A stretch of DNA of 64,000 nt from Pocillopora damicornis (lineage: Eukaryota): positions 62,001 to 126,000 of the forward strand of contig NW_020847620.1 of NCBI RefSeq assembly GCF_003704095.1, given 5' to 3'. Every line of letters begins with the position of its first letter. Position 1 is the first letter of the stretch. The notes beneath the pieces are model-generated. The model saw only the letters and a program-made list of their open reading frames with translations. It was not told the DNA's origin and made no database searches. Below, in pieces: positions 43,948-46,148 of the stretch. Made by a program: the position numbers and the translations under genes.

Positions 43948-44046
43948 TTCAAATTCATATTTATACCTTCAAATCCATATTTATACCTTCAAATCCATAT
44001 TTATACCTTCAAATCCATATTTATACCTTCAAATCCATATTTATAC
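43948..44046. repeat. 20-bp minisatellite x5 (TTCAAATCCATATTTATACC)
   Basis: Five near-perfect tandem units. Confidence 0.95.
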
Positions 44047-46148
44047 ACATCTGCAGGACCACCTCAATGTATTGTTATCTGTATAGTATCTGTTACATAT
44101 TTTGCGTTTGCCTTTGAAACAACCGAGACGTCCTGAAAAGATTTTCGAAAGAAAGAAAACGAATGAATCAAAACAAATTAAACGAAGCAAAAAAGAACAT
44201 AAGCAAAAACAAACAAACAAAAGCAAAAAAAAAAAACAAAACAAAAAAGCAAACAAAAGCGGAAATAAAAAACAAAACAGAACAGATGCATGCAATTTAA
44301 TCTGTCTTTACACTTTACTTACGAGCTCGATATCTATATCTATATGGCCTCGGGTCTTCCAATTCTAGAGGAAAAAGTAATAAAATATCTGTTTGTAAAA
44401 ATAATATTTCATGTTTCGGGACGAGGAGTGGAAAGATGGAGAGGTGGTGATGGAGTAGTTGTGTTTGCCTGAGACTAAAAACGGATTGTGAAACTTAAAT
44501 TAACCATTAACCGTTCAGCTATATCCACTAAAGCTTGAGTATGTTTTAAACCCAATGAAAACGTTTCTCTTCAAAGAAGCTTCTTAAAGCGACGTTTGTT
44601 GAGTTCATAGTTAGCCAATCTAAAGAAAAAAGTTAGTGACTACTTGAAGCTATGGAAAACACACTTTATCAGTACTATTCCTGATGATATGAATGCAGTA
44701 TTACTTTACACAGAATTTATTTTAAAAGGGGTCCGTCGTGGAATTTAGTGCACCCTTATATATTTTTTTTTCTGGGAGGAGGGGAGGTCTAACTTGTTTG
44801 TTATTCGAGACAGATCAGAGAAATCTCATCAAAGTAAAATTGCAAAATTTTCTTAGTAATAAAAATCATGTTGATTCTTACCAGTTTTTATGAAGTTATC
44901 TCTGAGTTCCTCTTCCGGATCTTCCAATGGGGAAAAAATTGATGATTATGAACAACCAAACAGAATTAAAAAAGGCAGAAAACTCACAAAATCATGTTTT
45001 AGATAAAGTTTCAATTTCGTAAAAATTAAGCGGGTCATTAATTAACTTTTACTTGAAGTCCATGTGCGCGTTTATTCGTTGTATGTCCAATCGTAAAATG
45101 CCACATCATTGACAACACAATATTTAACACTATAATCACGTTACTCAGTAATAGTACAACAACAATACATATCATCAGCAACAATAGATTTCTAGCAACT
45201 ATACGGTCGAATTCCATTTTGTAAGGGGTCGATATTTATTGGAGGATTTTGTTTGTGTCAATATAACCCATTTACCTAATCCCCTTATAAGGCTCTGTAA
45301 TATTATTCTGATCTCCTTTCATTGGCAGTTCATCGGCAGTCAATTTCCTTTGGCACTCCCTTTATATTGTGTTGGCGAAGATTGACCTCGTCCGTTCTGA
45401 AAGCATGTGATCCCCTACAAAATAAGACGGTCCCCCGCGTTCCCCCTGGCGTAAATCGTGACTGTTTCCCTTAAATGGTCTCCTCCAGTCTCAATCACTT
45501 GCAAGTTATAAATGGATATAAGTGCTTTCCATTTTTATAATTAAGCTTATGCTCTCTGGCTCAAACGGAGAATGTGATGAAACGAGAAGTATCTTAAAAC
45601 CCAGCCGGAGCATCAGCAACCATTTTTTCTTTCATCTTACTTCTTATCTTCCCAAAAATAGCCATGAACAGGTCATTCAAAAGATGGTTTATGCGTCGAA
45701 AAACATACGATATTGGTGACTTGAAAAAAATGTTTGCCATCATTATTATCGTTACTTTTATTGTTGTAGTCTTTGTTATCTTCTGATTCCTGCACAGATG
45801 CGGAAAATTAATCTCAATGCATGTTTTGCCATTGGGATTAGCTACTTTTTTCAATGCAGCGAAGCGTTATGAAAAAGCCCTGGGAAAGAAACTCAGTAGT
45901 GCAAATTAAAATGGTAAAACAACCACCGGAAACTTTTAGGAGAGATCGTTGTGGGCGTTGCACTCGCTGACGACATGTAACAAGTCGAAGTTAGATTTAC
46001 TAGAAAAGGTCAAGTATTTTGACAAAACAATTTGTTTCATGCTGTGAAATAGAAACTAACCTCTTAATTTCCCATCCTCCCTCTCAAAGTAGGTCTTCGC
46101 AAAGACGATGGAGAACAAAACAAGAAGAAAGCCAAGTTTCAGATACAT
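44041..46148 (-). CDS. Secreted prepropeptide, 86 aa: signal peptide + acidic propeptide + cationic 4-Cys peptide (candidate antimicrobial peptide or toxin)
   Basis: Exons 46148-46061, 44920-44882, 44364-44323, 44132-44041, all with phase-1 GT-AG junctions, 261 nt. Protein: MYLKLGFLLVLFSIVFA-KTYFEREDGKLRDPEEELRDNFIKTELEDPRP-YRYRYRARRLGCFKGKRKICNRYYTDNNTLRWSCRCV*. TATA-like TATATAAA at ~46211-46218 (-). Confidence 0.72.

Follow-up and report, generated by a model that had tools for sequence, protein, structure and literature searches.

A spliced gene for a predicted four-cysteine cationic prepropeptide, and its neighbouring precursor genes, in the coral Pocillopora damicornis

Does a small gene in the coral Pocillopora damicornis encode a secreted defence peptide of a kind not previously described in corals? 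The question arises from a 64,000-nucleotide stretch of contig NW_020847620.1 (positions 62,001 to 126,000 of the forward strand; hereafter the window), in which a reading made from the letters alone (the original prediction) had joined four small exons into a hidden gene for a highly cationic, four-cysteine secreted peptide and proposed it as a new antimicrobial peptide or toxin. We find that the gene is real, spliced and transcribed, and that it is already annotated in RefSeq, yet unnamed and unstudied. Its parts are as follows.

46061..46148, minus strand: exon 1, coding part, 88 nucleotides; first part of the acidic propiece, after a predicted signal peptide of about residues 1-17
44882..44920, minus strand: exon 2, 39 nucleotides; acidic propiece; missing in Stylophora isoform X2
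44323..44364, minus strand: exon 3, 42 nucleotides; end of the propiece (EDPRP) and an alternating Tyr/Arg arm
44041..44132, minus strand: exon 4, coding part, 92 nucleotides; RR of an RARR site, four-cysteine core (predicted beta-hairpin) and stop codon
43836..44026, minus strand: intron in the 3' untranslated region (3'UTR), donor 14 nucleotides past the stop codon
43640..43835, minus strand: exon 5, non-coding (3' end provisional); AATAAA at 43750 and 43698
46211..46218, minus strand: TATA-like box, 70 nucleotides above the ATG; its counterpart in a neighbouring paralogue, B (see below), lies 66 nucleotides above

Gene structure and transcription

The four coding exons, on the minus strand, join into a 261-nucleotide coding sequence for 86 residues without internal stops, and the three coding introns (1140, 517 and 190 nucleotides) all run from GT to AG and all lie in phase 1. 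The limits of exons 2 and 3 come from a splice-site scan between exon 1 and exon 4. The translation is identical to RefSeq XP_027059195.1 (P0002 among the aligned proteins), listed as 'uncharacterized protein LOC113685832' of Pocillopora damicornis.

We aligned public sequencing runs to the locus, the resulting contigs being informative about neither strand nor expression level. The exon 1/2 junction appeared with canonical ends in all three RNA runs of the first set; the exon 2/3 junction appeared in two of the three, with loose ends compatible with the junction in the third; and the exon 3/4 junction appeared in two of the three as well as in both of two further probable-RNA runs, run X4 being without exon 4 coverage. 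None of the three DNA-like runs (X19, X21, X22) contained a coding junction. A single X17 contig joins exons 2, 3 and 4, and none of the listed contigs spans all four. At the 5' side, RNA contigs for exon 1 extend to 46171-46175. Splicing of the 3'UTR intron is seen in X15, X1 and X12, whereas X17 retains it; the intron holds a 20-nucleotide tandem repeat, for which one RNA contig differs in copy number.

The RNA junctions, together with an intact translation matching RefSeq, rule out a chance open reading frame or a mis-spliced model. They bear out the in-frame exons of 88, 39, 42 and 92 nucleotides encoding 86 residues that had been proposed, and the check named with that proposal, RNA reads across the three junctions, is answered by splicing of all three coding introns in RNA runs. 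The count of four exons holds for the coding part and not for the whole gene, since a fifth, non-coding exon follows the 3'UTR intron. Because RefSeq annotates LOC113685832, the gene is not hidden.

Relatives, processing signals and predicted fold

Searches of 5.8 billion clusters (protein and profile) and of 1.84 billion representatives found relatives only in Pocillopora, including P. verrucosa, and in Stylophora pistillata, where the relative is LOC111325756 with proteins of 111 and 98 residues. This pocilloporid restriction is a lower bound on the range of the gene, because short peptides are easily missed by such searches, which also rely on genes having been called. A match among the 1.84 billion representatives to a 963-residue repeat protein (P0007, E 6e-4, residues 27-63) was discarded as acidic-composition noise. 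Scans of JGI metagenomes found no relative. Among the open-access papers searched, none names the gene, its protein identifiers or five short motifs, none of those listed by topic treats the gene in its title or the opening lines of its abstract, and the passages of PMC4178034 and PMC3204972 consulted mention no such peptide.

Charge and hydrophobicity support the proposed layout of signal peptide, acidic propiece and cationic C-terminal peptide: the N-terminus is hydrophobic (sliding-window mean up to 3.2) with a predicted signal peptide, the propiece carries a net charge of -4, and the C-terminal 37 residues carry +11. A composition count of this 37-residue piece returned the 12 Lys or Arg, single Asp and C-X7-C-X13-C-X-C spacing described earlier, along with seven aromatic and four aliphatic residues. 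Conservation is uneven along the precursor. Compared with Stylophora, the signal peptide (16 of 17 residues identical), the Tyr/Arg arm (9 of 10) and the stretch from there to Cys2 (10 of 11) are nearly unchanged, while the propiece (18 of 31) and the hairpin interior (4 of 13) have drifted; the end agrees at 3 of 4 positions, all four cysteines are kept, and the core charge remains +6. Four RNA runs, as well as P. verrucosa, show an Asn-to-Ser variant after Cys2.

Two competing processing signals may release a mature peptide of either 37 or 28 residues, with calculated masses near 4740 and 3399 Da in the reduced state and 4 Da lower with two disulfides. Four of the five aligned proteins (P0002-P0005) have D-P ahead of the arm, while P0001 has D-T there, its D-P lying in exon 2. 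The next dipeptide, R-P, is variable, with DTGR, DPGR and DPWR in orthologues. X-Pro trimming as originally proposed is thus supported for the first dipeptide, which is kept and recurs in neighbouring precursors whose propieces end EDPRPVP, and not for the second, which is not kept. Immediately ahead of the four-cysteine core, all five aligned proteins have R-A-R-R, a furin-type (convertase-type) site, and because RARR precedes the first Cys, a 28-residue product is the alternative. We favour the 37-residue form, because the arm is strongly conserved and the neighbours carry basic pairs within their tails; its YRYRYR N-terminus agrees with the composition and is a prediction, RARR allowing 28 residues instead. 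DP and EP sites also occur in sea anemone peptide precursors, where they flank class 9a peptides (PMC9320628), and cnidarian preprohormones contain acidic spacers, X-Pro ends and G-R sites (PMC7523074). As a separate observation, the DP-RP motif (44344-44350) has Trp in place of Arg in the DNA-like runs X21 and X22 (organisms D and E), and one X21 contig has a 3-nucleotide deletion at 44344.

Beyond the core, the Stylophora proteins continue with S-Q-G-R, an amidation-type Gly-Arg, and an acidic tail, and Pocillopora has no Gly after the core. Exon 5 weakly resembles this Stylophora tail: the resemblance was not significant by protein alignment (p=0.46) or over the whole tail (p=0.29), and reached p=0.03 by codon distance and p=0.025 by gapped profile when anchored at the exon start, in a register chosen by eye. 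We treat the possibility that exon 5 is a decayed tail of the Stylophora type as a weak lead.

AlphaFold2 predicts a hairpin in the precursor at residues 67-73 and 79-85, with a local predicted local distance difference test (pLDDT) of about 80; the arm comes out as disordered. For the 30-residue core (4 sequences) the strands were unchanged, with a mean pLDDT of 84.8 and a predicted template modelling score (pTM) of 0.34. The two-disulfide peptide originally envisaged is thus plausible as a hairpin in both predictions. Because the symmetric register sets Cys2 opposite Cys3, these two would pair across the hairpin and Cys1-Cys4 would close the basic FKGKRK loop, a pairing taken from strand limits and not from model coordinates.

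A cluster of predicted precursor genes

The gene sits at one end of a ~44-kb cluster of predicted genes for precursors with the same succession of signal peptide, acidic stretch and cationic part, a setting that the original prediction overlooked. The cluster comprises a paralogue, B, about 5.7 kb upstream of the gene, and copies of a second, D-type precursor. Both are predicted from sequence.

51820..51907, minus strand: paralogue B exon 1 (predicted), 88 nucleotides; 50 of 88 identical to exon 1, same donor
51228..51266, minus strand: paralogue B exon 2 (predicted), 39 nucleotides; 29 of 39 identical
50678..50704, minus strand: paralogue B exon 3 (predicted), 27 nucleotides; D-P retained
63425..63539, plus strand: inverted copy of exon 1 of paralogue B, 85% identical and frameshifted
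58527..59873, plus strand: incomplete D-type precursor copy; pieces of exons 1, 3 and 4, with EDPRP
60516..61008, plus strand: incomplete D-type precursor copy; exon 1 signal peptide, exon 2 and start of exon 3
G000:C4255:124-150 kb, outside the window: fuller D-type copies (predicted) at L015:4700-6060, L016:1319-3273 and L017:2576-4410

Paralogue B shares the intron phases of the gene and has similar splice sites, and none of 3000 shuffles reached the scores of its exons 1 and 2 against those of the gene. Among its candidate last exons (49600-50500, minus strand), no sequence resembles exon 4. Candidate acceptors for its later exons lie at 50487 and 49660 (minus strand), the latter reading to R-G-stop, and AATAAA signals lie nearby at 49370-49443.

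All eight genome matches of the D-type first exon fall within G000:C4255:120.5-149.9 kb, as do all three matches of the last exon. The fullest D-type copy (L016:1319-3273) has a signal peptide, a short exon of approximate limits, a 59-residue acidic exon and two more exons. Of these, exon 4 closes the propiece with EDPRPVP and goes on to RKSKKKY, and the last encodes 56 residues, none of them Cys and among them 16 Tyr, 14 Lys, 10 Arg and 8 Gly, giving a predicted cysteine-free tail of about 64 residues rich in Tyr, Lys, Arg and Gly. The D-type gene in L016 has a 3'UTR donor 19 nucleotides past its stop, placed like that of the 3'UTR intron described above. Several D-type copies are incomplete, and the copy in L017 is broken.

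Similarity between the two gene types is concentrated around the processing motif. EDPRP is written across them in five different synonymous codons, and [ED]DP[RW], a motif picked after the fact, occurs five times in the 227,720 codons scanned, each time within these exons. In 3000 shuffles on hand-chosen pairs, exon 3 resembled D-type exon 4 (p=0.003), and paralogue B exon 1 resembled D-type exon 1 (p=0.005), so that B bridges the types. Pfam gave no match for three pieces of the cluster. The tandem, partly decayed neighbouring copies would fit a fast-turnover effector locus.

The remaining features of the window lie apart from the cluster.

9151..10761, minus strand: exons that we take to belong to an acetyl-CoA transporter
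19739..33110, minus strand: gene for a large secreted or membrane protein, presumably resembling VWA7-type proteins; its first coding exon is duplicated (24129-25028 and ~31770-32640)
38547..40835, minus strand: exons with what we take to be PAN/apple-like cysteine patterns, among local duplications seen in a self-comparison of the window
55064..56759: duplicated array with a ~39-nucleotide tandem repeat

Possible functions of the peptide

We favour the view that the gene encodes a secreted cationic host-defence peptide, trimmed at D-P, folded as a predicted two-disulfide beta-hairpin and directed against microbes, and we judge this view to be evenly poised between right and wrong. The precursor would be secreted with its acidic propiece neutralising the polycation in transit. 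A cut at the acidic stretch, together with X-Pro trimming, would then free the 37-residue form with its Tyr/Arg arm, an alternative cut past RARR giving the 28-residue core. The freed hairpin, with its basic loop and arm, would bind anionic microbial surfaces electrostatically; such binding would probably be salt-sensitive, and lysis need not be part of it. The D-type genes nearby would contribute cysteine-free members to one shared secreted polycation system. The defence reading draws support from the pattern of conservation, in which arm and basic loop stay nearly constant while the propiece and hairpin interior drift. We also count in its favour the hairpin given by both predictions, the Gly-Arg past the last Cys in Stylophora beside the amidated damicornin and arminin 1a-C, the DP/EP sites around class 9a peptides and the layout of the arasins, which are antimicrobial peptides of crustaceans. 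Of the antimicrobial or toxic actions that the predicted peptide could have, an antimicrobial one is likely.

Several results weigh against a defence function. We found no sequence or fold link between this peptide and any antimicrobial peptide. Pfam returned no family at E<=10 for the exon peptides, P0002 or P0004; sequences in the Protein Data Bank (PDB) gave no match for the core and, with profiles, noise alone (E 0.56-2.9); and the ESM Atlas gave no family, the mature part alone being without a match. With either model, Foldseek gave no match at E<=0.001, a weak test for about 30 residues, and VIA gave none among 48,161 chains at Z>=2, which is uninformative at such size. These searches, which place the peptide in no known family, agree with the original remark that its cysteine spacing is not recognisable as damicornin, hydramacin or ShK type. 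A resemblance to the heparin-binding C-X-C modules of antistasin, EGF or VEGF was likewise dropped, with no Pfam match. The window holds a single NF-kB-like site, at 34720, against 3.9 expected by chance, and none near the gene, and the four-cysteine exon occurs as a single copy in the genome. Hydrophobicity is low, with a grand average of hydropathy (GRAVY) of -1.24 for the 37-residue form and -0.75 for the 28-residue form, and in the symmetric register both hairpin faces mix basic and aromatic residues, leaving the hairpin weakly amphipathic. A tachyplesin-like lytic surface is not evident because the faces are mixed and GRAVY is negative; together with the four aliphatic residues, this weakens the earlier description of the peptide as membrane-active. 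Common descent of the gene with the D-type genes has moderate support: exon 1 and D-type exon 1, also hand-chosen, are not significantly similar in 3000 shuffles (p=0.67). Finally, cnidarian toxins and neuropeptides use the same precursor layout (PMC9320628, PMC7523074), which does not separate the rivals considered below.

The known coral antimicrobial peptides are of a different scaffold. Damicornin, which is cationic and amidated, comes from this same species (PMC4881601), and arminin 1a-C is also cationic and amidated (PMC4881601, PMC6217004). Like damicornin, AmAMP1 and digitiferin (PMC4881601, PMC12496222), the peptide would be a secreted coral peptide with disulfides, having a hydrophobic N-terminus, predicted secretion and a mature net charge of +11 or +6. 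However, damicornin and AmAMP1 have six cysteines and all three are ShK-like, whereas here there are four cysteines, a predicted beta-hairpin and no Pfam domain at E<=10. SCRiPs are built on eight cysteines, with CCC close to the C-terminus (PMC10892658), and this peptide has four cysteines and no CC. Closest in outline are the class 9a, or boundless beta-hairpin, peptides (Ugr 9a-1 and Ms 9a-1), which have in common four cysteines, two disulfides, a hairpin and DP/EP sites (PMC9320628, PMC13608440), D-P preceding the mature part in P0002-P0005. Class 9a precursors are multi-copy, with several homologous peptides each, whereas all aligned proteins here have one Cys domain; the present peptide is also far more cationic, ends in C-X-C, has no PDB sequence match at E<=10 and shows no similarity to solved members in fold searches that are weak at 30 residues. 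It is not a member of the damicornin/AmAMP1/digitiferin group, the SCRiPs or class 9a. Of the proposed likeness to damicornin and the arminins, the layout of a precursor with a cationic C-terminal peptide survives, and membership in the damicornin/ShK type fails.

Other resemblances are analogies. Crustacean arasin 1 and callinectin also combine a linear Arg-rich N-terminus with a cysteine-closed C-terminus (PMC4881601, PMC12466427), but the arasin arm is Pro/Arg rather than Tyr/Arg, and homology was not detected. Tachyplesin and polyphemusin are likewise cationic two-disulfide beta-hairpins (PMC4881601), but are amphipathic and 17-18 residues long, whereas the predicted hairpin is longer, with a 7-residue basic Cys1-Cys2 loop and weak amphipathicity. 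Hydra arminins and hymenopteran aculeatoxins share cationic C-terminal peptides (PMC6217004, PMC6135544), and among aculeatoxins differing mature peptides follow a common signal and an anionic propeptide that is processed by DPP-4 (PMC6135544), a sharing that the cluster seems to show too; both groups are mostly amphipathic helices, and no relationship in sequence to this peptide emerged.

A venom role in stinging or gland cells, with action on the ion channels or membranes of prey or predators as sea anemone four-cysteine hairpin toxins have, is in our judgement unlikely. The conserved Phe-Lys pair and Lys-rich loop could form a channel-blocking surface. When the whole precursor is compared with the ESM Atlas, the clusters that come closest are spider toxin precursors (score 0.75-0.78), but shuffled proteins also attain scores below 0.8, and the mature part alone finds no match. 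Class 9a toxins join four cysteines, a beta-hairpin and DP/EP sites (PMC9320628, PMC13608440), and aculeatoxins set differing mature peptides behind one common prepro region (PMC6135544), but this precursor holds a single peptide rather than several and matches no solved toxin in sequence or fold.

A further possibility, quite improbable to us, is that the cluster encodes structural or adhesive polycations rich in Tyr, Lys and Arg, used in attachment, mucus, spirocyst thread or skeleton contact, with this gene as a disulfide-stapled member. The acidic propiece would keep the polycations soluble, and Tyr might be hydroxylated to 3,4-dihydroxyphenylalanine (DOPA). The last exon of the D-type copy in L016, rich in Tyr, Lys, Arg and Gly, free of Cys and lying behind a 59-residue acidic exon, has a composition that recalls mussel foot proteins, and the YRYRYR arm is nearly invariant; the product of this gene, by contrast, is mostly a compact disulfide core with seven aromatics in 37 residues, its shared descent with the D-type genes is moderately supported at most, and literature on coral Tyr/Lys-rich adhesives does not include this cluster among the matches listed.

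Signalling ligands are usually better conserved than a hairpin interior with 4 of 13 residues identical between two genera of one family, beyond which no relatives were found. A neuropeptide- or hormone-like 28-residue disulfide ligand, cut at RARR, amidated in Stylophora and binding heparan sulfate and a receptor, is therefore very unlikely, even though RARR is present in all five aligned proteins, Stylophora has Gly-Arg past the core, the gene is single-copy and acidic spacers, X-Pro and G-R sites are in use in cnidarian preprohormones (PMC7523074). Pocillopora, moreover, has lost the amidation site. Amidated preprohormones are recognised by at least three similar peptides, each followed by G-R, GKR or GRR (PMC7523074), where this precursor offers a lone G-R, in Stylophora only.

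Returning to the host-defence peptide, its interest lies in how few comparable molecules corals have offered, and is tempered by the abundance of orphan cationic prepropeptides among cnidarians. The digitiferin paper names damicornin and AmAMP1 as the sole earlier coral antimicrobial peptides, and all three are ShK-like and show poor or salt-limited activity against Vibrio coralliilyticus (PMC12496222). A 28-37-residue peptide of a different scaffold would be short enough for direct synthesis, in a well-studied coral disease model; if it proves inactive, the gene would be an ordinary lineage-restricted secreted gene. The predicted Tyr/Lys/Arg-rich neighbour precursors offer a second lead, either antimicrobial or towards a wet adhesive. 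More tentatively, as a possibility to which we give less than even weight, the cluster may represent an undescribed pocilloporid defence superfamily, in which one signal/acidic-DP cassette carries unrelated cationic payloads, a two-disulfide hairpin of new cysteine spacing with a Tyr/Arg arm in one case and cysteine-free polycations of Tyr, Lys, Arg and Gly in the other. If so, stony corals would have their first antimicrobial family outside the ShK type, a counterpart in corals to the Hydra arminins or ant aculeatoxins, and one that might help to shape the coral microbiome.
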